64,000 nucleotides of DNA from Ruminococcus sp. (GCA_022768065.1 JALELS010000026.1:8961-72960), one strand, 5' to 3'; positions 12,992-45,923 are shown, counted from the stretch's first letter. Program-made: numbers and translations. Notes: generated by a model not told the origin, from the sequence alone.

Positions 12992-14824
12992 ATGAAAAAA
13001 GCAATCTCAATTATATGCACATTACTGTTACTCGCCTTTACGCTGTCCTCCTGCACAAAGGCAAACACCGAATATGCGGGAAAGACCGTGACAGGCAAAA
13101 TAACCTCAATCGACAAAAGCACCGTTACGCTGGCTCTCGGTGAAATAAGCGAAAATACCGAGATGCCGTCGCCGCCGAGCGATGGCGGTCAAAGCGATAA
13201 CGGACAGGGCGACAGCAAAGCACCGCCCGAAAAACCCGACAACGATTCGCAAAACGGAGAAACTCCTCCCGAAAAGCCCGACGGCGATTCGCAAAACGGG
13301 GAAACTCCTCCCGAAAAGCCCAGCGGCGATTCTTCGGATTCATCCGCCGACAAAAACGCACCGAACGGCGACACAGACAATGCACCGAGCGGCGGCGCTC
13401 CGGGCGGAAATGTTCCCGGCACGGGCGCACCCGGCAAAGCCGTATTTACCGAAAGCGGCGAAACGGCAGAAGTAAGCCTCAAAAAAGCCACCGTCACCGA
13501 GGCTTCGCAAAATATTGAAATAAGCGCCCTCTCCGTAGGCGATATTATAACCGTCACATTTGACGACAAAGGCAAAGCGACAAGTGCCGAAAAAGTAAAT
13601 TCCGAAAACGGCAATTCGTCTTCCGCAGCCGACAGCACCGCAAAAAGCGCCAATACCATAGACTCCGACGGCACATACTCCGATACGGCGTATTATTCCG
13701 TGGGCGATGACGAAAATGCGCTTTTGATTGACGGCAAAACTGTAACGCTTGAAAATATCACCGTCAACAAATCGGCAGGCGCCTCGTCAAATACGGAAAA
13801 CGGTGATTTTTACGGTATAAACGCGGCCGTGCTCGTAAAGGGCGGCGCAGTTGTCGACATTAAAAACGCCACAGTAAGCTCTTCGGCACAAAACGGCAAC
13901 GGTGTATTTTGCTACGGCAGCGGCACGACGGTCAATATTTCCGATTCGACCATAACAACCACAGCCGATAATTCCGGCGGAATCCAGACTACGGGCGGCG
14001 GAACGACAAATGCCGAAAACCTGACCGTAAGCACCGCCGGCAACTCCTCGGCTGCCATTCGCTCCGACCGCGGCGGCGGAACGGTCAACGTTACGGGCGG
14101 CACATACAAAAGCAGCGGCTACAATTCGCCTGCGGTATATTCAACAGCCGCCATCACCGTAAAAGACGCTGTTCTGACAGCCGAAAACTCCGAGGCGCTC
14201 GTTATAGAGGGCGAAAACTCCATCTCTCTTACAAACTGCACCGTGAGCGGAAATATGAGCGATACCAAAGGCACAAGTTCCGATGAAAACGTGCACAATG
14301 TTATGATATATCAGTCGATGTCGGGCGACGCAAATGTAGGCACTTCGTCTTTTGCGATGGACGGCGGAACGCTGACATCATATAACGGCGATATGTTTTA
14401 CATCACAAACACGGTCTGCAAAATGTCTCTTTCGGGAGTAACCCTCACTAACAACGACCCCGACGCCCTTTTAATGAATGTGACCGGCAACTCCGCTTCG
14501 CACGGCTGGGGTACAGCAGGCAAAAACGGCGCGGACGTCACATTTACCGCGAACGCGCAAGTCTTAGAGGGCAAAATAAGAGTAGACACAATATCAAAGC
14601 TCAATATGACCCTTTCGGGCGGCAGTATATTTACGGGTTCTGTAAATATAGAAAACAACAATGAGGGCGGCGAAGCCGTCGCAAACAATGCGGTAATTAC
14701 AATTGACAGCGGATGCACGTGGAATCTCACCGCCGACTGCACCGTAACGAGCCTTACAAACAACGGCACGATAAACTTTAACGGCCACACAATCACTCTT
14801 GCCGACGGAACTGTTCTCTCATAA
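12992..14824 (+). CDS. Secreted lipoprotein with tandem acidic/proline repeats and C-terminal parallel beta-helix-like domain
   Basis: Signal peptide plus lipobox (LLLAFTLSSC). Contains a PPEKPDxDSQNGET repeat. The C-terminal ~400 aa is rich in short G/N/T/S-rich beta-strand repeats (TVNISDSTITT, GGTVNVTGGTY and similar). Confidence 0.75.
   Translation: MKKAISIICTLLLLAFTLSSCTKANTEYAGKTVTGKITSIDKSTVTLALGEISENTEMPSPPSDGGQSDNGQGDSKAPPEKPDNDSQNGETPPEKPDGDSQNGETPPEKPSGDSSDSSADKNAPNGDTDNAPSGGAPGGNVPGTGAPGKAVFTESGETAEVSLKKATVTEASQNIEISALSVGDIITVTFDDKGKATSAEKVNSENGNSSSAADSTAKSANTIDSDGTYSDTAYYSVGDDENALLIDGKTVTLENITVNKSAGASSNTENGDFYGINAAVLVKGGAVVDIKNATVSSSAQNGNGVFCYGSGTTVNISDSTITTTADNSGGIQTTGGGTTNAENLTVSTAGNSSAAIRSDRGGGTVNVTGGTYKSSGYNSPAVYSTAAITVKDAVLTAENSEALVIEGENSISLTNCTVSGNMSDTKGTSSDENVHNVMIYQSMSGDANVGTSSFAMDGGTLTSYNGDMFYITNTVCKMSLSGVTLTNNDPDALLMNVTGNSASHGWGTAGKNGADVTFTANAQVLEGKIRVDTISKLNMTLSGGSIFTGSVNIENNNEGGEAVANNAVITIDSGCTWNLTADCTVTSLTNNGTINFNGHTITLADGTVLS
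13223..13333 (+). repeat. 42-bp tandem coding repeat (about 2.6 copies) inside the lipoprotein gene
   Basis: The unit CCGCCCGAAAAACCCGACAACGATTCGCAAAACGGAGAAACT is repeated with a few substitutions, encoding PPEKPDNDSQNGET / PPEKPDGDSQNGET / PPEKPSGDSSDSS. Confidence 0.85.
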
Positions 14825-17771: not shown

Positions 17772-17891
17772 TAGTTTTTAACTAAAATCACTCTTTGCAC
17801 AAAAATGTAAAACACCTTTTGTGCAACATAAACATTAAAATTCGACAATGTTTTCGCCGCATTAAAAGTGTCGCAAAAAGAAAAATCGGAC

Positions 17892-17920
17892 AAAAAAAGA
17901 GCCGCCCAAAGGCGGCTCTC
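17892..17920 (-). terminator. Rho-independent terminator of fba
   Basis: Minus strand reads GAGCCGCC-TTTG-GGCGGCTC followed by TTTTTTT, 14 nt after the fba stop. Confidence 0.78.
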
Positions 17921-17933
17921 GATTTTTCTGAAA

Positions 17934-18869
17934 TTACGCTTTGTCTGCGCAGCCGAGAACTGTCTCAATCTTATGAGAAACGACCTCTTCAATAAGGTCT
18001 CTTGCGGGAGCAAGATACTTACGGGGATCGAAATCGCCGGGCTTCTCAACAAAGTGCTTACGGATAGCAGCCGTCATAGCGATACGGATATCGGAGTCTA
18101 CATTGATTTTGCAGACAGCCATTTTAGCAGCCTCGCGGAGCATATCCTCGGGAATACCGATAGCGTCGGGCATCTGTCCGCCGTACTCATTGATCATCTT
18201 GATATGGTCCTGATTTACAGAGCTTGCGCCGTGGAGTACGATCGGGAAACCGGGGAGCTTTTTGCCGACTTCTTCAAGGATGTCGAAACGGAGCTGCGGC
18301 TTCTGACCGGGCTTAAATTTGTATGCGCCGTGGCTTGTGCCTATGGCTATGGCAAGCGAATCAACGCCTGTTCTCGTAACGAAGTCAAGAACCTGCTCGG
18401 GTCTTGTGTAAGAAGCATCCTCGGCGCTTACGTTAACTGCGTCCTCAATGCCTGCGAGAGTACCGAGCTCGCCCTCAACAACTACGCCGTGAGCGTGAGC
18501 ATATTCAACTACCATCTTGGTGAGTGCGATATTCTCCTCATACGGAAGAGAAGAACCGTCTATCATAACCGAAGTAAATCCGCCGTCTATGCACGCCTTG
18601 CAGGTCTCGAAATCGGGGCCGTGGTCAAGGTGAAGAGCTATCGGAAGACCGGTCTCCTCTGCGGCAGCCTTTACCATAGCTACAAGATAGTTATGGGAAG
18701 CATATTTTCTTGCGCCTGCGGAAACCTGAAGAATTACGGGTGCATTGTGCTTTTTGCAAGCTCTTGTGATACCCTGAATAATCTCCATATTGTTGACGTT
18801 GAAAGCGCCTATTGCATAGCCGCCCTCATAAGCCTTTTTGAACATTTCTGTCGTTGTTACCAATGGCAT
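17934..18869 (-). CDS. fba: Class II fructose-1,6-bisphosphate aldolase
   Basis: 311 aa with class II aldolase signatures (GYAIGAFNVNNME, LHLDHG, HGASS). The long plus-strand ORF at 17868-18872 is its antisense shadow. Confidence 0.95.
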   Translation of the reverse strand: MPLVTTTEMFKKAYEGGYAIGAFNVNNMEIIQGITRACKKHNAPVILQVSAGARKYASHNYLVAMVKAAAEETGLPIALHLDHGPDFETCKACIDGGFTSVMIDGSSLPYEENIALTKMVVEYAHAHGVVVEGELGTLAGIEDAVNVSAEDASYTRPEQVLDFVTRTGVDSLAIAIGTSHGAYKFKPGQKPQLRFDILEEVGKKLPGFPIVLHGASSVNQDHIKMINEYGGQMPDAIGIPEDMLREAAKMAVCKINVDSDIRIAMTAAIRKHFVEKPGDFDPRKYLAPARDLIEEVVSHKIETVLGCADKA

Positions 18870-18949
18870 TGAAAGTCACTCCTTGAGTTTTTATATTATT
18901 TGATTTATTGTTTCTTCAGCATTTCGGAAATTCCCCGAATTGCGAACAT

Positions 18950-18978: not shown

Positions 18979-19098
18979 ATCATAATCTTTAAAAGCAGCG
19001 GTATTTTGCGGATTATCCGTCCGAAGCAAAACGGCAAAATACCGCCGCTGTAACAGGAGACGGCGCTTTCTCATATTATGGCAAAAGGAGGCGATAGC

Positions 19099-20112
19099 AT
19101 GAAAAGTATGCTTTTGCCGGGCGATATGCGCTCCGGACTGTTCCCCGAAAAAGATGACGGCACATACATATTTCTTTGCGGCGGCACGGGTCTTTTGCGC
19201 CGTGAGACGCTGCGCATTTTAAAGAACTGCTTTGCCCGCGAATGCGACGAATTTTATTCGATATACGGCGGCAATGAGCTTTGCGCTCTTAACATACCGC
19301 AAAAAAGCGCCGTAATTGCCGACAGTGTTTATTTTGGCTTTCACGGCGGCAATTACCCGAAACCGAATGTGATTTTTTTAAGTCTGGACGATTTTTCCGA
19401 TGTTCGTCCGAAATTTGAAACGCCCGAAACAAATAAAAGCAAAAACGCATTTGCGGTTTTTAACGAGAACTGTAAAAGATACCTGTGTGCCTCGGCTGCG
19501 GCAAAAAAGGTTCTCAATACCGAAGCCGAAAAAAGCCTTGACAAGCGCCGTATTGTCGATTATGCCGTGCGATTTTTGAAACGAAGCGGCACAGTAGTCA
19601 CCGAAAAGAAAAGCAGACCGAAGTTATTAAGAGCAAGCGCCGTAACCCCGTGGGGTGTTGAATGCGTATACGATGAATTTGAAACATGCGAAACGGTTTT
19701 TGTAATAAAAGACGAGTGCGGCGCGCTGTCAAACGAGCTTATATCGGCAATATGCGGCAGGCTTCAAAAATTCGGTGAAAATTATCAGGTTTATTTCTGT
19801 TCGCTCAGCTCTCTTGCGGAGCATCTTATCATACCGTCTCTTTCCGTCGGATTTTTTACGGAAAACAGCTCGCACAAATACGATTTTCGGAACCGCCGAA
19901 ATTTATCCGCCTCACGGTTTTTGCCGCCGCAGTCCGAATTATTAAAGACAGAAGCGATACCGTCGGCTCTTTTGAGTGAATTTCTCGACGAGGCTGTTTT
20001 TTCGCTTTTTGAAGCGACGCGTAATATGTTTTCGGCGGAAAAGGAATTGTCGAAGGGCAGAGAAAATGCTTCACTGCTGTGCGCCGAGAAAATAATCACA
20101 AGCTTTTTCTGA
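19099..20112 (+). CDS. Hypothetical protein (no domain recognised)
   Basis: Long open frame. AAAGGAGG lies 7 nt upstream of the ATG at 19099, so the track start at 19078 is probably an extension. I recognise no motif; Cys-rich, no TM segment or signal peptide. Confidence 0.55.
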   Translation: MKSMLLPGDMRSGLFPEKDDGTYIFLCGGTGLLRRETLRILKNCFARECDEFYSIYGGNELCALNIPQKSAVIADSVYFGFHGGNYPKPNVIFLSLDDFSDVRPKFETPETNKSKNAFAVFNENCKRYLCASAAAKKVLNTEAEKSLDKRRIVDYAVRFLKRSGTVVTEKKSRPKLLRASAVTPWGVECVYDEFETCETVFVIKDECGALSNELISAICGRLQKFGENYQVYFCSLSSLAEHLIIPSLSVGFFTENSSHKYDFRNRRNLSASRFLPPQSELLKTEAIPSALLSEFLDEAVFSLFEATRNMFSAEKELSKGRENASLLCAEKIITSFF

Positions 20113-33120: not shown

Positions 33121-33172
33121 CGGTTTATAATTAGTCGGTTTATAATCAATCGGTTTACTTATTGTAATACCG
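33121..33172. promoter_or_regulatory. Phased CGGTTTA direct repeats (candidate MarR operator array)
   Basis: CGGTTTA starts at 33121, 33136 and 33151, an exact 15-bp period. An inverted partial copy (TACCG) lies at 33168-33172. The array sits 64-115 nt upstream of the marR start. Confidence 0.45.
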
Positions 33173-33303
33173 ATTTTTTTTATTGTCAACAAAAAGTTTA
33201 AAAATTAAAACAATTTACAAGTCCGCCTGTATCAATGCCCGTGGGACTTTAATAGACATTTTGTCCGTAAGTGTCGTACCCAATTCGGAACAATGCGCTT
33301 TTT

Positions 33304-33332
33304 TTGACGGTATGTATGAAAAAACTTATACA
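33304..33332 (+). promoter_or_regulatory. Candidate sigma-70 promoter in front of the phage-like head module
   Basis: TTGACG (33304-33309), a 17-nt spacer, then TATACA (33327-33332). Confidence 0.4.
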
Positions 33333-33400
33333 AAAATCACAAGGACAAAAACAAAGCGGCGTCTTTCTTTTTAAAGCGCACCGCAAAGGGAGGAATTTTT

Positions 33401-33892
33401 ACGGACAGGCAAAGTCTTAAAAAACGCGAAAAGGATTTCTGCCGCGAATACATATACTGCGGAAATCCAAAGGAGGCAGCGCAAAATGCGGGGTACACGG
33501 TTTTTCCGCAGCTGTGCGGCATACGGCTGCTCACCGACAGAAGAATTAAAGCCGAAATAGCCGCGCTCGAAAAGCAGGCGGCAGCCACAAGAGCCGAGGC
33601 GCTCAGGGGCTATCGCCGAATAGCATTCGGCAGTATAGCGGACGCGGTAAAGCTTGTTTTGCTCAGTGACGGTGAGCCTTGCGATGCCGAAAAGCTCGAC
33701 CTTTTTAATGTGGCAGAAATCAAGAAGCCGCGCGGCGGAGGAATGGAAATCAAGTTTTTTGACCGACTGAAAGCACTTGAGAGAATAGAAGTGCTTTCCT
33801 CCGCCGAGAGCGACAAATCCTCTATGTCGCTTTACAGAGCTATTGAAAATTCGGCAAGGGCATCCTCCGGGGGACAAGAAGATGACTGTTGA
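33401..33892 (+). CDS. terS: Phage terminase small subunit (HTH type) with no canonical start codon
   Basis: The frame is open from 33320. My translation (TDRQSLKKREKDFCREYIYCGNPKEAAQNAGYT...DRLKALERIEVL) fits Terminase_2-type TerS. There is no in-frame ATG/GTG/TTG before 33659. GGGAGG (33388-33393) sits 7 nt upstream of the ACG at 33401. The track only reports the C-terminal 77 aa. Confidence 0.62.
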   Translation, partial: TDRQSLKKREKDFCREYIYCGNPKEAAQNAGYTVFPQLCGIRLLTDRRIKAEIAALEKQAAATRAEALRGYRRIAFGSIADAVKLVLLSDGEPCDAEKLDLFNVAEIKKPRGGGMEIKFFDRLKALERIEVLSSAESDKSSMSLYRAIENSARASSGGQEDDC

Positions 33893-35132
33893 TTCATTCA
33901 AAAGTTTTTCAAAAAAGCAGCTTGTTTTACTTAACTGGTGGACCGACTCTTCGCCGTATAAAGACCGCGACGCGATAATCTGCGACGGCTCCGTGAGAAG
34001 CGGCAAAACGGTATGTATGTTTCTCTCATTTATATTTTGGGCATTTTATATGTTTTCAGACAGCGACTTTGCCATCTGCGGCAAAACCATAGCCTCTCTG
34101 CGGCGAAACATAATAACGCCCATGCTGCCCATGCTGCGTTCGCTCGGCTTTAACTACGATAACAGCTTATCAAAAAACAAGATAATCATAAAAAAAGACG
34201 GGCGCGAAAACCGTTTTTATATTTTCGGCGGAAAAGATGAAAGTTCTGCGGCGCTGATACAGGGTATGACTCTTTCGGGCGTTATGCTCGACGAGACGGC
34301 GCTTATGCCGCGCTCCTTTTGCGAACAGGCAATAGCGCGCTGTTCCGTTGACAATTCGCGTCTTTGGTTTAACTGCAATCCCGAAAATCCGTCGCATTGG
34401 TTCTATACGGAATGGATAAAAAAGGCGGTAGATAAAAACTGTCTATACCTGCACTTTACCATGGACGACAATCCCTCGCTGTCGGAAGAAATTAAACAGC
34501 GCTATAAAAATCTTTACAGCGGCTCATTTTACAAGAGATTTATCGAGGGCAAATGGGTCAGTTGCGACGGCGCGGTTTACCCTTTTTTCGACAGCTCATA
34601 TATATACGACGTGCCCGCGGGGATTACGAAATATTTTGTATCCTGCGACTACGGCACGGTAAATCCGACATCTATGGGGCTTTGGGGTGAAAAAGACGGC
34701 ACCTTTTTCAGAGTGGATGAATTCTACCACGATTCAAGGCAGAAAGGCTTTCAGATGACCGATGAGGAATATTACCGTTCGCTTACAACTCTCATCGGCG
34801 ACAAAAAAGTGGATTACGCGGTAGTTGACCCCTCAGCCGCAAGCTTCATTGAATGTATAAAAAGGCACGGGAAAATACGTGTGGTGCGTGCCGACAACGA
34901 CGTTGTAAAAGGCATACGCAAAACGTCGGACGCGCTGAAATCCGGCAGGATAAAAATCTGCAAACCGTGCCGCGACACCATACGTGAGTTTTCATTATAT
35001 CGCTGGGACGAGAGTGCAAAATACGACGCCCCGCGCAAGGAAAATGACCACGCTATGGACGACATACGATATTTCGTTATGTCACTCGAAAACTCCGCCG
35101 ACGGCTTTTTTGCCGTTTCGGTGGAACGGTGA
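33882..35132 (+). CDS. terL: Phage terminase large subunit (PBSX-like)
   Basis: Walker A GSVRSGKT, Walker B-like GVMLDETA, and a C-terminal RNaseH-like nuclease region (VDPSAASFI, HAMDDIRY). The ATG at 33882 overlaps the terS end by 11 nt. Confidence 0.9.
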   Translation: MTVDSFKSFSKKQLVLLNWWTDSSPYKDRDAIICDGSVRSGKTVCMFLSFIFWAFYMFSDSDFAICGKTIASLRRNIITPMLPMLRSLGFNYDNSLSKNKIIIKKDGRENRFYIFGGKDESSAALIQGMTLSGVMLDETALMPRSFCEQAIARCSVDNSRLWFNCNPENPSHWFYTEWIKKAVDKNCLYLHFTMDDNPSLSEEIKQRYKNLYSGSFYKRFIEGKWVSCDGAVYPFFDSSYIYDVPAGITKYFVSCDYGTVNPTSMGLWGEKDGTFFRVDEFYHDSRQKGFQMTDEEYYRSLTTLIGDKKVDYAVVDPSAASFIECIKRHGKIRVVRADNDVVKGIRKTSDALKSGRIKICKPCRDTIREFSLYRWDESAKYDAPRKENDHAMDDIRYFVMSLENSADGFFAVSVER

Positions 35133-35148
35133 AAGGAGGAAATTATGC

Positions 35149-36288
35149 TTGAAGCTATTCAGAAGCGGCAAACACATTGAAGCACCGGTAACCGCCGCAA
35201 CGCAGGGAACGTCCTCGGGACTCTTCCCCGCCGTTAACAACTACACGCCTCTTGTGCTGTGTCAAAACACACTTTACAAAAGCCTCATGGAGGCGGTTCC
35301 CGTAATAAACGCGGCGGTTCACAAAATAATACGCCTGACGGGCGGCTTTACGGTTGAAACGGGAAATGACGCTTACGATAAAATCCTTGCCGAATTTCTT
35401 TCGGACGTACCGTGCGACGCCGGCGAAAAAAGCGTTTATTCGTTTTTGGACACCTATTTTGAGCAGCTTTTGATTTACGGCACGGCAGTCGGCGAAATGC
35501 TTACTGACGAGTACGGAAACATACGCTATCTCTACAATGCAAGACCCGACGACATCAGTCTTTTAAGAGATCCGCGCGATTTTTCAAAAGTTCTTGTATG
35601 CCGCGCAGACACGGTACCGACTCCGGTAAAGCATCAGGAAAGAATACTGTTTACGGCACTTGACGCAGAGCCCGGCTCGCTCTACGGCACCTCGGTGCTT
35701 TACGGTCTGCCGTTTGTAAGCTCGGTACTGCTTAAAATATTTGAAGCCACCAAGTCCAACTGGGACAGGGTCGGCAATGTGCGATTTGCCGTAACCTATA
35801 AGCCCGACGGCGAGGCTCTGTCGAAATCATTTGCCAAGGAGCGCGCCGAGCTTATAGCGAACGAATGGAGCGAGGCTATGAAGAGCGGCAGCGTAAAAGA
35901 CTTTGTCTCTGTGGGCGACGTCGATATAAAGGTTATAGGCGCCGACAATCAAATTCCCGACAGCGAAGTTCCCGTGCGCGAGCTGCTTGAACAGATAGTG
36001 GCAAAACTCGGTATACCGCCGTTTTTGCTCGGGCTTTCGTGGTCAACCACCGAGACTATGTCAAAGGTGGAGACGGACGTTTTGACTACGGAGCTTTGGC
36101 ATTACAGAAGACATCTGACGCCGGTTATAGAAAAGATTTGCTCAACATTTCTTCGCAATATAGGCTCTTCTTTAAAGCCGTGTGTTGTGTGGGACGACAT
36201 CACGCTTCAGGACGAAGTCGAAAACGCCAAAGCAAGGCTTTATTCGGCGCAGGCAAAGGCACTTGAAAAGGAGGAAAAAACCGATTGA
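35149..36288 (+). CDS. Phage portal protein (HK97-type)
   Basis: The translation resembles Phage_portal family proteins (GIPPFLLGLSWSTTETMS clip/stem region). TTG at 35149 lies 9 nt after AAGGAGG. The track start at 34984 would overlap terL by 149 nt. Confidence 0.82.
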   Translation: MKLFRSGKHIEAPVTAATQGTSSGLFPAVNNYTPLVLCQNTLYKSLMEAVPVINAAVHKIIRLTGGFTVETGNDAYDKILAEFLSDVPCDAGEKSVYSFLDTYFEQLLIYGTAVGEMLTDEYGNIRYLYNARPDDISLLRDPRDFSKVLVCRADTVPTPVKHQERILFTALDAEPGSLYGTSVLYGLPFVSSVLLKIFEATKSNWDRVGNVRFAVTYKPDGEALSKSFAKERAELIANEWSEAMKSGSVKDFVSVGDVDIKVIGADNQIPDSEVPVRELLEQIVAKLGIPPFLLGLSWSTTETMSKVETDVLTTELWHYRRHLTPVIEKICSTFLRNIGSSLKPCVVWDDITLQDEVENAKARLYSAQAKALEKEEKTD

Positions 36289-37199
36289 ACAAATCATTTG
36301 AAAGTCAGGCGGACGAAAATGAGCTGTCAAAAGAGGATCTGGCGCTCATAAACACATTCACCCAAAAGGAAATGACGAAGGACGAGGTATTCACCTTCAG
36401 CGTAATACTCTGCGACAATGAGATAGACCGCGACTACGAACGCTTCACCGAAAAATCGCTGTCGGTTCTTGCCGACTTTTTCGTAGGCAAAACCGCAATA
36501 CGCGATCACAGTATGAAAAGCGCCGATCAGAGCGCAAGGACGTACAAGACAAAGGTAATAAAGGACAGCACGCGCAAAAATTCTCTCGGCGAGGACTATG
36601 TATATTTAAAGGCCTGGTGTTATATGCCGAAGATAAAGAAAAACGAAGAGCTCATTGAGGAAATCAAGGCAGGCATCGTAAAAGAAGTGAGCGTGGGCTG
36701 CGCCGTTAAAAACTGCGTCTGCTCCGTCTGCGGAAAAGAGCTGGGCAAAAGCGAATGTTCACACGTCAGAGGCGGCGTTTACGACGGCAAGCTCTGTTAC
36801 GGTGAACTGCAAAATCCCACCGACGCATACGAGTGGTCGTTTGTCGCCGTACCTGCGCAGAAAAACGCGGGTATCACAAAAAAATTCGGTTTCACCGCAG
36901 ACAGTGACGCAACCCGGCAGCTGACGTTCTTAAAAAGTGAAAACGAACGTCTGAAAAGTCTTGCTAAAGCAGGAGAGCTGTACCGCACCGAAAAGCGGAC
37001 GGAGCTTGTAAAAGCATTTATCGCCGCTTTCCCGTCGCTCGGCGACAAGGTATGCGAAAAAATGGCGGAGTGTCTCGAAACGGACGAGCTTTGCGCCGCG
37101 GCAAAGGCCGTGAGCAAAAACAATTTTACTTTGAGCTCTCCGCAGCTCGCACCGGCAAAAAAAGCCGAAGCAAATTCAAATTCGCAGTTCAGACTGTAA
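36285..37199 (+). CDS. Prohead protease (HK97/S78-like) fused to C-terminal scaffold-like coiled coil, with Cys4/His insertion
   Basis: Protease-like motifs (VGKTAIRDHS, KEVSVGC, EWSFVAVPAQ). The C-terminal ~100 aa are helical and charged. The TTG start overlaps the portal stop (TTGA), with AAGGAGG 10 nt upstream. Confidence 0.7.
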   Translation: MNKSFESQADENELSKEDLALINTFTQKEMTKDEVFTFSVILCDNEIDRDYERFTEKSLSVLADFFVGKTAIRDHSMKSADQSARTYKTKVIKDSTRKNSLGEDYVYLKAWCYMPKIKKNEELIEEIKAGIVKEVSVGCAVKNCVCSVCGKELGKSECSHVRGGVYDGKLCYGELQNPTDAYEWSFVAVPAQKNAGITKKFGFTADSDATRQLTFLKSENERLKSLAKAGELYRTEKRTELVKAFIAAFPSLGDKVCEKMAECLETDELCAAAKAVSKNNFTLSSPQLAPAKKAEANSNSQFRL

Positions 37200-37217
37200 A
37201 AAGAAAGGATAAAACAA

Positions 37218-38231
37218 ATGGCAATTTACGAAAACATCAAACTTGACAAGGGTCTTTACGGAACTTCAAAGGGCTTTCTCGCAGAGCTTGAGAGCATTGA
37301 CCCCTCCGAAAATTACAAGGGCACCTCTCTTGAGGGTCTCGACGCATTTGAACGTCAGCTCAAGCGTTTTGACATAAAGGTGAGCGGCAAGATGTCAAGT
37401 CCCGTCGAAAAGTTCTTTGCAACCACCGACAGCGCCGCTCTTTTCCCCGAATACATCTCAAGAGCGGTAAGAACCGGACTTGAAAGCGCAGATGTACTCT
37501 CTGAAATCATCGCCGCAAGAACGGTTATCGACGGTCTTGACTACCGCCCGATAACCTCTGTTCTCACAGACGACGACAAGGCTCTTAAAGAGACAGCCGA
37601 GGGTACCGCTATACCCGAAACCGCGGTTAAAACTCAGGAAAATCTCGTAAAACTCAAGAAGCGCGGCAGAATGTTATGCGCGTCATACGAGGCTATACGC
37701 TTCCAGAAGCTCGACCTGTTTACCGTCACCTTAAAGCAGATAGGCGCATACATTTCGAGAGCGCTCTTTAAAGACGCGGTAAGCGTTTTATCGCTCGGCG
37801 ACGGCAACAAAAACCCTGCGACCACGGTCAAGGTGGCCTCTTCCGGCAAGCTCACATATTCCGACCTCGTTTCATTCTGGAACGGCTTTGACCCGTATGA
37901 GCTCAACACCGTTATAGCCTCGCCCGACATCGCCGCAGCCATACTCAATATGACCGAAATGCGCGACGCCGCGGCAGGGCTCAACTTCCATGCAACCGGC
38001 AAAACCGTAACGCCGCTTGGTGCAAATATGCTGAAAAGCAGCGCCGTAACCGCGGGCACACTTATAGGTCTTGATAAAAACTGTGCCCTCGAAATGGTTG
38101 AGGCAGGCGGTATTCTCACGGAATACGACAAGCTGATCGACCGCCAGATAGAGCGCGCAGCCATTACCCAGACCGCAGGCTTTGCAAAAATATTTACCGA
38201 CGCGTCAAAAATCCTTTCGACAAAGGCGTGA
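37218..38231 (+). CDS. Major capsid protein (HK97 fold, no delta domain)
   Basis: 337 aa. Position after the protease, size and sequence character all fit phage MCPs. The assignment rests on my own recognition plus synteny and was not tested by any search. Confidence 0.75.
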   Translation: MAIYENIKLDKGLYGTSKGFLAELESIDPSENYKGTSLEGLDAFERQLKRFDIKVSGKMSSPVEKFFATTDSAALFPEYISRAVRTGLESADVLSEIIAARTVIDGLDYRPITSVLTDDDKALKETAEGTAIPETAVKTQENLVKLKKRGRMLCASYEAIRFQKLDLFTVTLKQIGAYISRALFKDAVSVLSLGDGNKNPATTVKVASSGKLTYSDLVSFWNGFDPYELNTVIASPDIAAAILNMTEMRDAAAGLNFHATGKTVTPLGANMLKSSAVTAGTLIGLDKNCALEMVEAGGILTEYDKLIDRQIERAAITQTAGFAKIFTDASKILSTKA

Positions 38232-38273
38232 TAAATCATAATAAATGAGACTCGCAAAGGGAGCGAACGAAAA

Positions 38274-38636
38274 ATGATAAACGAAAATGCAGTTCTTTAC
38301 AAGGCGAAAAGTCTTTTCGGCTTAGATAACACCGTACTCGCCCCTCTCTATTGCGTATGCCATCTGTTTTGCCTTGAACTCTACTCTCGGTTAAAGGACA
38401 AAAAAGATGCAAACGACGAGAGAATAATTTACCTTGCGGCGGTAAACTGCCTTTATTACAGCATACTTGAAAGCACCGACAGCGGCTGTTCGGTGGAGTC
38501 GGTAAAGGCAGGCGACGTCACCGTAAAAGAGGACGCGTCAATGCCTCTTAAAAAAGCGGTCGAATTAAAGAACGAAGCCGAAAGACTTGCGTCGCCGCTC
38601 CTTCTTGACGACGGATTTGTTTTTATGGGGGTGTGA
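38274..38636 (+). CDS. Head-tail connector (gp6-like) candidate
   Basis: 120 aa, first small ORF after the MCP. Assigned by synteny and size only. Confidence 0.45.
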   Translation: MINENAVLYKAKSLFGLDNTVLAPLYCVCHLFCLELYSRLKDKKDANDERIIYLAAVNCLYYSILESTDSGCSVESVKAGDVTVKEDASMPLKKAVELKNEAERLASPLLLDDGFVFMGV

Positions 38637-38637
38637 T

Positions 38638-38973
38638 ATGAAGTTTTCCGATGTATCCGCAAGGATAGGCAAAGATGTGTTTATCACAAACAGCACTGGC
38701 TGGCAATCCCCCGTATTCCGCGCGGCAATACAGCCGCTCCGCTATAAAAACAAGATGTATCTCGGCGGAGTTTACACCGAGGTCGGCAAAGCGAAATACG
38801 ACTACTTTTTGTATATAGGTCCGCCCGATCACGATATAAGCCGCCTCTCGGCGGATTCGAGGATAATCGACTCAAGCGGCAGGGGCTTTACGGTAGATCA
38901 CTGTGAAACGGTGTACTATAAAAACACGCCGTTTTATATATGGGCCATAGTAAGGGAGACGAACGGAATATAA
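38638..38973 (+). CDS. Head closure / head-tail adaptor candidate
   Basis: 111 aa. ATG at 38638, 1 nt after the upstream stop. Assigned by synteny and size only. Confidence 0.45.
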   Translation: MKFSDVSARIGKDVFITNSTGWQSPVFRAAIQPLRYKNKMYLGGVYTEVGKAKYDYFLYIGPPDHDISRLSADSRIIDSSGRGFTVDHCETVYYKNTPFYIWAIVRETNGI

Positions 38974-39411
38974 ATGTTTTTTGCAGTTGTTGCTCCGAGC
39001 GATATTCTCGGGTTCCTGTCCTCAAAGAGCGACATCACACGGAACTGCGAATTAACGCTCGCATACGAAAATGAAATCAAACCCACGCCCATGAAAAAAG
39101 CAATAGTTGCCCTGGGCGTGGAAAAGATGACCGTCGGCGATTATCTCACCGAAACCGCCAGCGACGGGTCTGTTACGGTGACCACAAACAGGCAGGCGGA
39201 TTTGGTTTTGAAAATATCAATATTCGCCCCATACAGCTACGGCTCATACGAGACGCATAAAATACTCGACAAAATAGCCACGGCTATGCTGTATTCGCAA
39301 AAGCTGTATACGGTCACAAACTTTGAGAGCGGCGGTGTGCACTATGTACGCGATACGGGCGCGCTCGTACTCGACACATACTTTACGCTCAGCAAAGTTT
39401 TTTCCGAATAG
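38974..39411 (+). CDS. Neck / tail-completion-like protein candidate (last gene of the module)
   Basis: 145 aa, starting immediately after the upstream stop. Assigned by position only. Confidence 0.4.
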   Translation: MFFAVVAPSDILGFLSSKSDITRNCELTLAYENEIKPTPMKKAIVALGVEKMTVGDYLTETASDGSVTVTTNRQADLVLKISIFAPYSYGSYETHKILDKIATAMLYSQKLYTVTNFESGGVHYVRDTGALVLDTYFTLSKVFSE

Positions 39412-39420
39412 GCACACACA

Positions 39421-39454
39421 AAAAGGGACTGTAACAAAAGTTACTGTCCCTTTT
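39421..39454. terminator. Bidirectional terminator between the phage-like module and ohyA
   Basis: AAAAGGGACTGTAAC-AAAA-GTTACTGTCCCTTTT, a perfect 15-bp stem. Confidence 0.8.
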
Positions 39455-42800: not shown

Positions 42801-45800
42801 TTACGGTTTTTTAAACCGCGGTATAAAAATCACAAGTGCCGTCCAAATAAGGACGAACAGCATTATCTGAAGAGCGCCCGCCTGGCTGAGACCCGAGGTG
42901 AACGCCATAGCGGCAACGGCAAGTATTCCTATGCCGACGCCTATATACTGAAGAATCGAGGAAAGCCTGAATTTGTCGGTTATCAGGAATGCGGCGGCAA
43001 ACGACTTTAACAGCGTATAGACGCTGCCGTCGTGTATTACCTTGCAATCCCCCGACGGCTTAACCGTCTCGTAAAGGTCTTTAAACATCTTGCCGGCAAC
43101 GGGGCTTATAACCTTGACAAAACCGTGGGGCAAATCAAAATACTGCTCGATAAGCTCCTCGGTGATGTTCGGGTCTGTCGTTCTGACAAGCACGCTCACA
43201 CCGTATTTTTCAAGTTTATTCAAATACTTTGCGGTGTCGCCGTTCGGTTTGTATTCAACCGAGAAGCCTGCCGCCGTTTTACCCTCGACGGCAAGATAGA
43301 GCACCTGCCTGCCGGAAGAGAGGAACTTGCTCTCTTCTTCCTCGGAGGGCGGCGTTACATTGTGCTTTGAAAGCAAATCACGGTTACCCACAAGCACGCG
43401 CTGATTGTTTATCCAGCAGGAACAGCCGAGTTTTTCCTCATAGACAAGAGATTCCACGGGCGGCAGAATATCGCGTTTTGAAAGTATGACGCTGTCGAAA
43501 ACATCTGCGAGTGCGCCGCCGCTTTTAATAACGACAGCCGCCGTATAGAGAAACGCATCGTCTATACGCATTGAATTATAGAGCTTGAATCCGTGCAAAC
43601 TGCATCCGCCGTAGAGGAAAAGATCCGACGCATCTATAACCACCGCATTTGCGGTAGAGGCGTCCTCGGCGGCGTAATAGCCGGAAACCAACGAACCCGA
43701 ACGTCTGAGAAACTTATTTGTCCCTTTAAGTATATCAAACGCCGACAGGCACGACGACACGGGAAGTCCTATAAGAGTGACTGCGGTAAACGCCGACACG
43801 GCGTAAATCAAATTCTTTGAAATGACTCCGGCTACAACAGCCGTGAGCACCGCCGCCGCAAGTACGGCAGGCAGCGAAAGCGCGTAAACATCGTCAGACG
43901 GGTCGCGGCGGAGAGTCATCTCCACAAACTTTGACGGGAAACCGATTTTAGCACTGTATCTTATATCGGGATCGCCGAGCAAAAGCCCTCTGCCTATTTC
44001 AAAGGCTTCGCCCTCATCCTCTATCTTGCTTACGCTGTAAAGCTCCTCGGGGTGCTTCACTATGTACTCAAAATTTGCAATATCGTTTTTGGCGCGCGCC
44101 TTATCCGCGGCAGCCGTAAATATGAGCGGAATAAATACCGCAGGGGCATAAATATGAATATTATCCGGTAACGCCCCGTGCCCCGAAAAAGCTGCAATAC
44201 ACTGCAAAACGCCCGCAAACAAAGCGACGGTGACGCACAGCGAACGCGTAATCTTTTTTCGTCCGAGAAGTGAAAAGCTCTTTTTGATTTCTCCGAAGTC
44301 AATCAGCGCCGCAATCAAAAGCAACACGAGATTGACGCCCAAAAAGGCATATTCGCTGTTCCCGAAAGCCGACAGATCCGACAATACGGTTTTGACCGTG
44401 GAAAACAGCGTGAGAACCACAAGGAAAATCACAAATATAATTATCTTTGCGGTCGCTTTTCTCTTATTGCCCATCATTATATCATAGACGGCCTTTGCGT
44501 CCTTGTTACTGTAATATTCGCGCGCTATTCTTATCGGCTCATCGTCCGCCTTGGATTTTTCGCGATTTCGGCGGCTGCGTTTTTTCTTCGGCTCAAAATC
44601 CTCGCCGTCGTCCTCGTCGTAAGCGGACTCGTCTATAATATCGCCGTTTTCGTCCTCCTCGGGGAGATCGTCGAGAATACGAATATTTTTTCTTATCTTT
44701 TCCGCAGTCTTGTTTTCTTCGTCCGAATCGCTCTCTTCCGGCTCGCTGCGGCGAACTTCCTCTTTTTCGGTCTGCCTGAATGCAGGCTGTAATTTAAAAC
44801 TCTTTGCTTTTTTGTTTCTCCTGCCCAAAAGCTCAATTTCAGCCTCGTATTCGTCCACCGTTTCCGGCTTATCCTCTTCCTCAAAGCCGTCAAGCTTTAT
44901 CTGATTTTGCAGCTGCTGTGTATCTTCGTCCGCGGAATTCTTTTTGGCAAGAGATTTAAGCTCGCCGGTACGATATTTTTCGGCATTGCTTTTTTGAACC
45001 TTCAGCTCGTCCTCAGCCGAAATTATTGTGGGAACGGGCATAAGCCCCTCTTCACTCGTCTTTTCGCCGTCGGGCTTTTTCACTATAACGCCGAACTTCT
45101 CAATGGTTTTTGGCGGAAGCGACGACATAAGCTTTTCGTGCTCACGCGTTTTTTCCATATCAAGCTTAGGCTTATTTAGAAATCTCTCGCGGTATTTATC
45201 CGTCTCCATGCCTTTTTTAACGGCAGGTGCTTTTTTGTCGGTAAATTCCGAAGATGTTGTTCTGGTTATTTTTTTGCCTATATGGTGTTCGATTTTTTCG
45301 CTGTGAATTGCTCTCGCGTCAACTTCATTGAAAACGCGCGTCTTTTCAAGCGAAATTTGACCGGGAACCGATTTGTCTTCGGACTGCACGGGCGAATTTT
45401 CATTATCGCCGGTAAGGCTTGGGGTTGTCCCTTCAAAAAGAGGATTTTCGGGCAGTACCTCTGAGGCAAATTCGCTGTCATGCGAAATCTTATCCGCCGA
45501 TTTTTCTTCAGCGAAAGATTTTTCCGCGGTTTTTGTTTCCGCTTCAGTATTTTTCGATTTTTTATCCTCGTTTTTCTCTTTGTGCCTGCCGCCCGAAAGA
45601 ATTTCATCAAAAATGGCGGGGTCTATGGAAAAGCTGTCATTTGACTTCTTGTCGGGCTCTTTTTTTGATATATGCAAAACGGGCGCCTCGTCGGTTTTTT
45701 CTTCGGCGAAATCGTATTTTTTCTCTGCGTGTTCGACCTTTTTTTCGGATTCGCCGATTTGTTCACCGTGAGTTTCTTCGGGCTCGGACAGTCCCTCGTC

Positions 45801-45923
45801 CGCTAAAAGGGCGTCAATCTCCGCAAGCGACCAGAGCTTGCCCGGCGCTTTTTCTGTATCTTTTTCGGTTTCGCTGAGAATATCGTCAAGAGAAAATCCC
45901 GACGACATATTACGGTCTGCCAT
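42801..45923 (-). CDS. Large membrane protein: ~470-aa disordered acidic/lysine-rich N-terminus fused to a degenerate P1B-type ATPase-like body
   Basis: By eye, the C-terminal ~560 aa align with heavy-metal P-type ATPases (VLVGNRDLL, GRQVLYLAVEGKTAAGFSV, GVSVLVRTTDPN). The catalytic motifs are degenerate: DKTGT is DASDL, TGDN is TTDP, GDGxND is HDGSVY. There is no TGES and no CPC. Confidence 0.6.
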   Translation of the reverse strand: MADRNMSSGFSLDDILSETEKDTEKAPGKLWSLAEIDALLADEGLSEPEETHGEQIGESEKKVEHAEKKYDFAEEKTDEAPVLHISKKEPDKKSNDSFSIDPAIFDEILSGGRHKEKNEDKKSKNTEAETKTAEKSFAEEKSADKISHDSEFASEVLPENPLFEGTTPSLTGDNENSPVQSEDKSVPGQISLEKTRVFNEVDARAIHSEKIEHHIGKKITRTTSSEFTDKKAPAVKKGMETDKYRERFLNKPKLDMEKTREHEKLMSSLPPKTIEKFGVIVKKPDGEKTSEEGLMPVPTIISAEDELKVQKSNAEKYRTGELKSLAKKNSADEDTQQLQNQIKLDGFEEEDKPETVDEYEAEIELLGRRNKKAKSFKLQPAFRQTEKEEVRRSEPEESDSDEENKTAEKIRKNIRILDDLPEEDENGDIIDESAYDEDDGEDFEPKKKRSRRNREKSKADDEPIRIAREYYSNKDAKAVYDIMMGNKRKATAKIIIFVIFLVVLTLFSTVKTVLSDLSAFGNSEYAFLGVNLVLLLIAALIDFGEIKKSFSLLGRKKITRSLCVTVALFAGVLQCIAAFSGHGALPDNIHIYAPAVFIPLIFTAAADKARAKNDIANFEYIVKHPEELYSVSKIEDEGEAFEIGRGLLLGDPDIRYSAKIGFPSKFVEMTLRRDPSDDVYALSLPAVLAAAVLTAVVAGVISKNLIYAVSAFTAVTLIGLPVSSCLSAFDILKGTNKFLRRSGSLVSGYYAAEDASTANAVVIDASDLFLYGGCSLHGFKLYNSMRIDDAFLYTAAVVIKSGGALADVFDSVILSKRDILPPVESLVYEEKLGCSCWINNQRVLVGNRDLLSKHNVTPPSEEEESKFLSSGRQVLYLAVEGKTAAGFSVEYKPNGDTAKYLNKLEKYGVSVLVRTTDPNITEELIEQYFDLPHGFVKVISPVAGKMFKDLYETVKPSGDCKVIHDGSVYTLLKSFAAAFLITDKFRLSSILQYIGVGIGILAVAAMAFTSGLSQAGALQIMLFVLIWTALVIFIPRFKKP

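Follow-up and report, generated by a model that had tools for sequence, protein, structure and literature searches.

The 64,000-nucleotide stretch of chromosome studied here (JALELS010000026.1:8961-72960; hereafter the window, from whose first letter all coordinates are counted) comes from an uncultured Oscillospirales bacterium, a metagenome-assembled genome (MAG) labelled 'Ruminococcus sp.' by NCBI, and it contains a cassette of eight co-directional genes (33401-39411, plus strand, 6.1 kb) for the packaging, head and neck of a phage. We interpret this cassette as a selected, domesticated capsid and packaging core of PBSX type, that is, of a contractile-tailed phage, with a role like that of a gene transfer agent (GTA), and give this reading a probability of about 0.55. 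Purifying selection acts on all eight genes as strongly as on the neighbouring housekeeping genes, and the cassette is anciently domesticated and vertically inherited, not a recent deletion scar. Its genes and signals are as follows.

33304-33332, plus strand: promoter-like sequence TTGACG-17-TATACA, read in the sequence, overlapping the box TATGTATGAAAAA
33311-33323, plus strand: family-wide box TATGTATGAAAAA (TATnnnTGArAGG), a predicted signal
33401-33892, plus strand: g1, terS, small terminase of 163 codons (Terminase_2, 1e-14; phrog_51, 1e-17)
33882-35132, plus strand: g2, terL, large terminase of the PBSX family (TIGR01547; Terminase_6N/3/6C)
35149-36288, plus strand: g3, portal (phrog_30703, 3e-116; Phage_portal, 2e-9)
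36285-37199, plus strand: g4, XkdF-like prohead protease with a C-terminal scaffold-like region, a weak assignment (phrog_16951, 5e-95)
37218-38231, plus strand: g5, major capsid protein with HK97 fold (PF25209, 4e-17; phrog_3922, 4e-96)
38274-38636, plus strand: g6, probable head-tail adaptor, by position and size only
38638-38973, plus strand: g7, predicted head-closure stopper, SPP1 gp16-like (AlphaFold2 and Foldseek)
38974-39411, plus strand: g8, predicted tail-terminator-fold protein, lambda gpU-like (AlphaFold2 and Foldseek)
39421-39454, both strands: bidirectional intrinsic terminator common to the cassette and the convergent ohyA, by fold energy

A preliminary description of the sequence had placed eight co-directional open reading frames (ORFs) here, with junctions ranging from an 11-nt overlap to a 42-nt gap, and this layout holds: terS and terL overlap by 11 nt (33882-33892), 42 nt separate the capsid gene from g6, and the remaining junctions lie between a 4-nt overlap and an 18-nt gap. 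The cassette is flanked by a divergent marR-ABC-ABC operon on one side and by a convergent oleate hydratase gene (ohyA; MCRA family match, 7.6e-211) on the other, and its G+C content of 0.44-0.51 is the same as that of its surroundings. Judging by the gene content of its ORFs, the window as a whole is ordinary bacterial chromosome. Searches for ORF families and for repeats bore out the earlier statement that genes for an integrase, a repressor, replication, a tail or lysis, as well as flanking repeats, are missing from the 64 kb. None of these genes was found among the window ORFs, four of which are without a family match; no integrase or recombinase, alpA-type regulation or replication module lies within 33 kb upstream or 25 kb downstream of the cassette; no att-like direct repeats bracket it in the window; and there is no HNH endonuclease among its eight proteins.

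The two terminase subunits come first. The match of TerS to Terminase_2 spans profile positions 3-126, so the DNA-binding N-terminus is kept, in agreement with the helix-turn-helix-type N-terminus read before, and TerL reaches 205 bits against TIGR01547 ('PBSX family', cutoff 105) and has the Walker A motif GSVRSGKT, which is also what the first reading had proposed. The terL ATG lies at 33882, and an upstream TTG at 33843 is likewise open. Portal and HK97-fold capsid protein were correctly recognised as well, the portal scoring 37.5 bits with Pfam Phage_portal, slightly below the cutoff of 39.1, in addition to its PHROG match; its gene has a TTG start 9 nt after GGAGG, and relatives use TTG too. 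The assignment of g4 as an S78-like protease stood only in part. The match to Peptidase_S78_2/XkdF (PF14550) is weak (18.9 bits, E 0.0016, cutoff 24) and seen in just 3 of 38 family members, and phrog_16951 is annotated as of unknown function, but H75, S136 and a four-Cys cluster are invariant, and this His/Ser pair and Cys cluster fit a protease. Profile searches of PDB sequences with g4, the capsid family, g6, g7 and g8 gave no significant match. Portal, protease/scaffold and capsid protein appear to constitute a prohead assembly set, and the cassette further encodes DNA filling (TerS with its DNA-binding N-terminus, and TerL) and sealing (adaptor, stopper and tail terminator). Profile searches thus support terminase, portal and capsid protein, and the neck assignments come from predicted folds.

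Sequence family searches (Pfam, PHROG) gave no match for g6, g7 or g8, and for g6 there was none in NCBIfam or the PDB either. The adaptor is most likely g6, given its place ahead of g7 and g8 in all loci. The alignments used to predict the structures of g7 and g8 came from a profile search with both proteins concatenated; a single-sequence search with g8 gave near-identical proteins only. The AlphaFold2 model of g7 (predicted local distance difference test, pLDDT, 82) has SPP1 gp16 (7z4w) as its top Foldseek match (E 2e-3, probability 1.0), and the matches ranked below it are connector chains from further siphoviruses and myoviruses. The model of g8 (pLDDT 79; predicted template modelling score, pTM, 0.72) has 35 PDB matches with E<=1e-3, largely to tail terminators or their myovirus/tailocin equivalents, among them lambda gpU, T5 p142, the particle of the Rhodobacter capsulatus GTA (RcGTA, 6tba), the 'gateway' of E217/Pa193 and the collars of diffocin and pyocin. 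From these models, g7 is predicted to be the stopper and g8 the tail terminator. Of the three neck or connector proteins claimed earlier, g7 therefore has a fitting fold, whereas the third, g8, would belong to the tail side. Since g8 would be the ring that normally caps the tail tube, the cassette appears to end one protein beyond the head. In the window clade, g8 is 143-145 aa long and is without the C-terminal receptor-binding-like domain carried by most tail-less relatives. The terminator that follows had been described as a perfect 15-bp stem; it is bidirectional and strong (dG -19.3 kcal/mol on the plus and -20.8 kcal/mol on the minus strand; z -6.3 and -4.9), but its stem has 14 paired positions and one internal T-T mismatch.

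Evidence for domestication comes from the mode of evolution of these genes. As reference we used locus L007 (GenBank MT835508.1), which is syntenic with the window over >40 kb. Ratios of nonsynonymous to synonymous divergence (dN/dS) are 0.005-0.10 for the eight cassette genes (terS 0.089, terL 0.058, capsid gene 0.041, g6 0.10, g7 0.005), at a synonymous divergence (dS) of 0.39-0.71 in seven genes, with terS higher at 1.49. In the host genes on the flanks, dS is 0.24-0.73 and dN/dS 0.04-0.12. The null hypothesis of the preliminary description, a prophage left behind by a recent deletion, led one to expect values near 1 or frameshifted orthologous copies. Instead, TerL, portal, g4 and capsid protein are all full-length in 56 of the 63 species loci with enough sequence, most of the exceptions being artefacts of the ORF picker, and a dozen species of the window clade have this architecture in intact form. 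Cassette and flank have also diverged together: over the 12 genomes with the marR-ABC flank, cassette distances correlate with those of the ABC transporter (r = 0.92, Mantel p = 2e-4) and both give the same three clades, and the glyQS and SpoU methylase neighbours recur near more distant loci in other genera. In the related genomes examined, no full prophage was found at the marR-ABC junction, which carries the same tail-less cassette instead. Selection, co-divergence and intact orthologues thus speak for the other possibility raised at the outset, a domesticated, non-autonomous capsid and packaging system.

This system is widespread. At least 8000 homologues of the capsid protein were found, and relatives occur in at least 595 one-per-species genomes, all Oscillospirales among the matches listed (Acutalibacteraceae, Ca. 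Fimenecus, Acutalibacter, Ruminococcus and Oscillospiraceae MAGs), and on 565 IMG/VR contigs. The exact capsid sequence of the window is deposited as 'MAG: Ruminococcus sp.', in a 90%-identity cluster with n=1475. There are two architectures: a short form, in which g1-g8 are followed by host genes, in Acutalibacteraceae and Fimenecus-type genomes including the window, and a long form of g1-g8 plus about eight more genes in Ruminococcus-type genomes. The tail-less cassette is found between host genes in dozens of species, for instance between hydrogenase and glycogen operons (L001), between marR-ABC and fucosidase-Rnf genes (L005), or between marR-ABC and ohyA (the window and L007). In the gene maps of 80 species loci, both flanks consist of host genes, and only a few of the loci have a serine recombinase nearby.

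The relatives differ in how much of the tail they keep. After g8, the long form continues with a small tube-like protein, a LysM/DNA_circ_N protein, a baseplate hub, a Mu gp45-like spike, a gp46/W-like wedge, Baseplate_J (2e-50), a Mu gp48-like protein and a fibre-like protein of ~160-180 aa. Some members additionally have a short tail sheath (Phage_sheath_1/1C, 348-395 aa) and two chaperone-sized genes between g8 and the tube (L110 5507-7846; L125 6012-7805; L112, L123, L128, L129, L132 and L138). No tape measure gene was found in any family locus examined, so the contractile device of the sheath-bearing long forms would be undefined or minimal in length. The g8 of most short forms has about 280 aa: its N-terminal half is the terminator domain, and its C-terminal half, a putative receptor-binding domain (RBD), has its homologue in the C-terminal part of the fibre-like protein with which the long form ends. 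Read from gene content, the series would run from sheath, tube and baseplate to tube and baseplate, then to a terminator fused to the putative receptor-binding domain, and finally to the terminator alone; having the terminator without the fused domain, the window is the last and most reduced step. One tail-less subclade (L187, 6610-11457; also L186) carries, directly after its g8::RBD fusion, genes for a Sigma70_r4+HTH protein, fibre-like proteins, a CBM_5_12 protein, DUF6275, an XhlA-like protein, a CW_7 endolysin and a holin, a set found in part in L072, L189, L190, L222 and L224. Because this subclade has its own lysis genes, tail-less forms can be complete, release-competent units. Such a graded loss of the tail makes it testable how far a domesticated phage can shrink and still move DNA.

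The cassette shares the general characters of GTAs, namely structural and packaging genes on the chromosome without integration, excision or replication genes, inherited vertically and kept by purifying selection. Long reads of fecal virus-like particles have revealed that GTA-like packaging of 4.6-8.9-kb fragments is prominent in gut Ruminococcaceae/Oscillospiraceae (Borodovich et al., Nat Commun 2026, PMC12946183). FpGTA, the agent of Faecalibacterium prausnitzii and the nearest published counterpart of the cassette, has a head operon and a baseplate/fibre/lysis operon 125 kb away, and its particles have 40-nm capsids, no visible tails and 8.4-8.9 kb of DNA (PMC12946183); loci for Ruminococcus callidus (4.6-kb fragments) and Gemmiger were not identified in that study. 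As in FpGTA, the cassette is a chromosomal operon with the order TerS-TerL-portal-maturation protein-capsid in a gut member of the Oscillospirales, without replication or integration genes and with tail-related and lysis functions outside the head operon; FpGTA is near-ubiquitous in its genus, and its particles look tail-less. The two are set apart by their annotations: the proteomics table of FpGTA names an N4-gp56 family capsid and a Prp-type cysteine protease, whereas the cassette has a PF25209 capsid, an XkdF-like g4 and a PBSX-family TerL, and identity of the cassette with FpGTA itself was rejected because of the different capsid and protease families. They differ as well in TerS, as that of FpGTA, like the GTA TerS proteins described in PMC12946183, is without a DNA-binding domain, whereas that of the cassette keeps the Terminase_2 N-terminus. 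FpGTA is the only gene cluster tied to GTA-like packaging in the gut, and the cassette family is a second, unrelated and far more widespread candidate.

The likeness to PBSX, the defective prophage of Bacillus subtilis, lies in the TIGR01547 TerL and perhaps in g4, with its weak XkdF-type match, and in the longer relatives it extends to sheath, tube, LysM protein, hub, Baseplate_J, Mu gp48-like and XhlA-like proteins in PBSX order. Gene by gene, the cassette is presumably collinear with the xtmA-xkdJ segment of PBSX. However, PBSX, a tailocin in its action, retains lysis genes and a complete contractile tail including the tape measure, whereas the cassette stops at the terminator, and a contractile tail and lysis cassette of PBSX type are absent from the 64-kb window. 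RcGTA resembles the cassette in being vertically inherited and selected and in a head-neck order that ends with adaptor, stopper and terminator, and the g8 model matches the RcGTA particle chain 6tba_4A; it differs in that tube, tape measure and baseplate genes continue in the same cluster, and it is alphaproteobacterial and has no sequence-level relationship to the cassette.

A comparison with those phage-inducible chromosomal islands that form capsids (cf-PICIs) and with split GTA loci had also been made from the sequence, and it is apt as an analogy. The cf-PICIs are mobile islands of 10-18 kb with integrase, alpA/regulation, replication and HNH endonuclease genes that package themselves and release tail-less, DNA-filled capsids (Alqurainy et al. 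2023; bioRxiv 10.1101/2025.02.11.637232). Like them, the cassette has its own terminase, portal, protease, capsid, adaptor and connector and neither tail nor lysis genes, but it is 6.1 kb long, immobile, vertically inherited and provided with a tail terminator, and the absence of integrase, replication and regulation modules excludes it from membership. We therefore regard the cassette as a variant of the GTA-like, domesticated-phage kind and not as a member of FpGTA, cf-PICI or PBSX proper.

The start of terS is unusual, as the preliminary description had already recognised. There is no ATG, GTG or TTG before 33659; an ACG at 33401 stands 7 nt after the Shine-Dalgarno sequence GGGAGGA (33388-33394), aligns exactly with the ATG of relatives and is the same in L007 (16175-16190). 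Near-cognate starts recur in at least seven other loci of the family, with ATA in L063, L069 and L070 and ATC in L008, L054, L060 and L079, and TTG is the start in about 13 further loci; each of these weak or near-cognate codons lies 6-9 nt after a good Shine-Dalgarno sequence. With a dN/dS of 0.089, terS is evidently translated, and the recurrence of weak starts suggests that there may be selection for a low or IF3-sensitive translation of TerS.

Upstream of terS, the promoter TTGACG-17-TATACA proposed earlier is present and is kept in L007, as TTGCCG-17-TATACA, and in L005, but it fails the consensus rule of the promoter scan, and the region has 6 promoter-like sites against 6.4 expected. 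The overlapping, semi-conserved box TATnnnTGArAGG precedes a short hairpin and is found, at a distance of about 67 nt upstream of terS, in 53 of 102 distinct loci, against 8.6 in shuffles. This element could be the -10/+1 region of a promoter with a 5' stabilising stem-loop, or else the start of a small upstream ORF. The NTG within the box is always ATG, GTG or TTG, and the arms of the hairpin vary between loci; in the window, a 34-codon ORF begins at the ATG at 33316 and extends over the terS start in a different frame.

If the cassette works as a GTA-like core, a subpopulation of cells would transcribe its operon from a weak promoter, and TerS would be made at a low level from the near-cognate ACG, the weak start limiting its amount. 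Chromosomal DNA would then be packaged by headful into small capsids, possibly starting in situ in or near terS, and the stopper would close the neck, with the terminator ring as its cap. The resulting particles would behave like a tail-less-looking GTA, as FpGTA does in Faecalibacterium. Release and delivery would depend on functions outside the cassette, which may be lysis and receptor-binding genes elsewhere, borrowed phage tails, or uptake by competent recipients.

Several points weigh against a GTA-like role. FpGTA particles have been seen by experiment, whereas the cassette is known here from genes alone, and purifying selection shows that the proteins matter, not that they transfer DNA. 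The window clade is without the receptor-binding-like domain, and with no lysis or tail genes found, the route of exit and entry is missing. Packaging may moreover be site-directed, not random, because TerS keeps its DNA-binding domain, unlike the GTA TerS proteins of PMC12946183. In the window clade, terS has no canonical start codon, and its dS of 1.49 relative to L007 is threefold that of the neighbouring genes, possibly a sign of recombination or of a partial loss of function. Finally, a contig of a sister strain (L091 1-1700; ENA ERZ501599 NODE_2300, 1.5x coverage) is without g1-g6; either it comes from a strain that has lost most of the cassette, or it is a chimera assembled at low coverage.

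A broader claim can be put forward tentatively, as a possibility that is less likely than not: that the whole family, in at least 595 species (Acutalibacteraceae and Ruminococcus-type MAGs), is a vertically inherited, PBSX-derived element, pared down step by step from a particle with a contractile tail to a bare, DNA-filled head under a tail-terminator ring; that the window has the end point, a still working 'head-only GTA', whose capsids would export chromosomal DNA and arrive at recipients with no tail of their own; and that the family is the machinery behind the GTA-like packaging of short fragments (~4.6 kb) reported for Ruminococcus in human stool.

Among the other explanations, the one that survives best refines the GTA-like reading. 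The cassette could be the head and neck locus of a split-locus GTA, and the genes for receptor binding, lysis and regulation would then be situated at other places in the genome, on the pattern of FpGTA or RcGTA. The two loci of FpGTA, 125 kb apart (PMC12946183), provide a precedent, and the tail-less subclade represented by L187, with regulator, fibre-like genes, endolysin and holin beside the cassette, indicates that these functions are part of the system; likewise, a terminator that has no tail to end suggests missing partners. However, all 80 of 80 metagenomic Baseplate_J relatives adjoin head genes, with no stand-alone tail or baseplate locus among them, and the lysis, regulator and fibre proteins of the L187 type have no match in the 64-kb window. 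We consider a split locus doubtful, though deserving of attention.

Tail piracy by a fixed, immobile element is another reading. Tail-less capsids with host DNA would be released and dock onto free tails of co-resident or environmental phages, and the gene content agrees with this, since packaging, capsid, adaptor and connector genes without tail or lysis genes are what the packaging module of cf-PICIs contains, and cf-PICIs have been shown to release tail-less capsids. The lack of an integrase, of a replication or regulation module and of an HNH endonuclease, and a size of 6.1 kb compared with 10-18 kb, do not fit, and vertical co-divergence speaks against the life style of a satellite. The cassette also encodes its own tail terminator, onto which a phage tail already bearing a terminator should not fit. 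For these reasons tail piracy seems unlikely.

An exaptation without DNA transfer, such as phage interference through hijacking of capsids or terminase, a means of storing or discarding DNA in sporulation or under stress, or a nanocompartment made of protein, appears to us about equally improbable. Selection has been shown for the cassette genes and transfer is inferred only, the delivery apparatus was lost stepwise while the heads stayed, and a spore germination gene of the GerA family is a conserved neighbour in Ruminococcus-type loci, all of which would suit such a use. Yet the conserved TerS, TerL, portal, stopper and terminator make sense only for packaging and retaining DNA, no defence-system signature was seen, though no search aimed at one was made, and the GerA link is one of synteny alone and is absent from the window. 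Least probable is a prophage remnant, a left arm drifting to loss with no current function after deletion of the right arm, for although the gene order stops exactly at the head/tail boundary, terS is without a canonical start and the sister-strain contig without g1-g6, a dN/dS of 0.005-0.10 at a dS of about 0.5 for all eight genes, an architecture intact in the window clade and most of the 63 species loci, co-divergence with the flanks and the absence of a full prophage at the junction in related genomes leave it little room.

Some further observations concern the relatives. The sister-strain contig L091 is 99% identical to L007 from the start of g7 onward, and its upstream ORF, a membrane-anchored GH25 muramidase, is fused in frame to g7. 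In many long forms of the Ruminococcus type, the GerA-family gene (1e-134) is located on the minus strand directly upstream of terS (e.g., L081 4168-5655); this may be synteny alone or a link to sporulation and germination. Just upstream of the terS promoter region of such long forms, there is also a palindrome, ATTGCATA-N4-5-TATGCAAT, carried by L069, L075, L077 and L079 and degenerate in L009 and L080, ~45-70 nt upstream of the box, which looks like an operator for a dimeric regulator. IMG/VR contigs of 56-114 kb (L194, L208, L234-L236, L241, L242, L247 and L251) have a capsid protein 59-62% identical to that of the window, mostly accompanied by a g4-like protein, together with terminase and portal genes of other kinds and numerous small ORFs, and are probably free-living phage relatives of the domesticated family.

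The reference locus itself, MT835508.1, is a 46.7-kb bacterial chromosomal scaffold that includes part of the ribosomal protein operons and was deposited as 'UNVERIFIED: Bacteriophage sp.', an example of how prophage and virome pipelines label such chromosomal loci as phages. MT836604.1, MT835952.1, MT835769.1, MT838310.1, MT835564.1 and MT835834.1 are deposits of the same type and are also bacterial scaffolds; all seven records give human fecal samples, Mexico, as their source. MT835508.1 fits a study of DNase-treated fecal virus-like particles (VLPs; PMC8361208), its belonging to that study being unconfirmed. We considered a VLP origin of this scaffold as evidence of packaging and rejected it as decisive, because the same deposit holds other bacterial chromosomal scaffolds; the scaffold is compatible with packaging of a window-type chromosome, not decisive.

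Other features of the window, given as approximate positions, are the following.

14.9-17.6 kb: nrdDG
21.7-26.8 kb: Rnf complex
46-62 kb: S10/spc/alpha ribosomal protein operons
63 kb: glyQS

An Rfam scan found no known RNA element near the cassette, its sole match being the S10 leader at 62.6 kb. Four ORFs are without any Pfam or PHROG family (12992-14824, 17868-18872, 19078-20112 and 42801-45923, coding for 610, 334, 344 and 1040 aa, respectively); the last of them is kept beside the SpoU methylase gene in L007, and a 916-aa gene occupies the same position in L009. On the marR side of the cassette, positions 33121-33175 contain three direct copies of CGGTTTA(T/C) and an inverted ACCGATT, adjoined by a near-consensus promoter on the minus strand, TTGACA-17-TACAAT (33189-33161). 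These repeats are probably the MarR operator of the divergent marR-ABC-ABC operon, and the whole repeat and promoter region is kept in L007 and L005.

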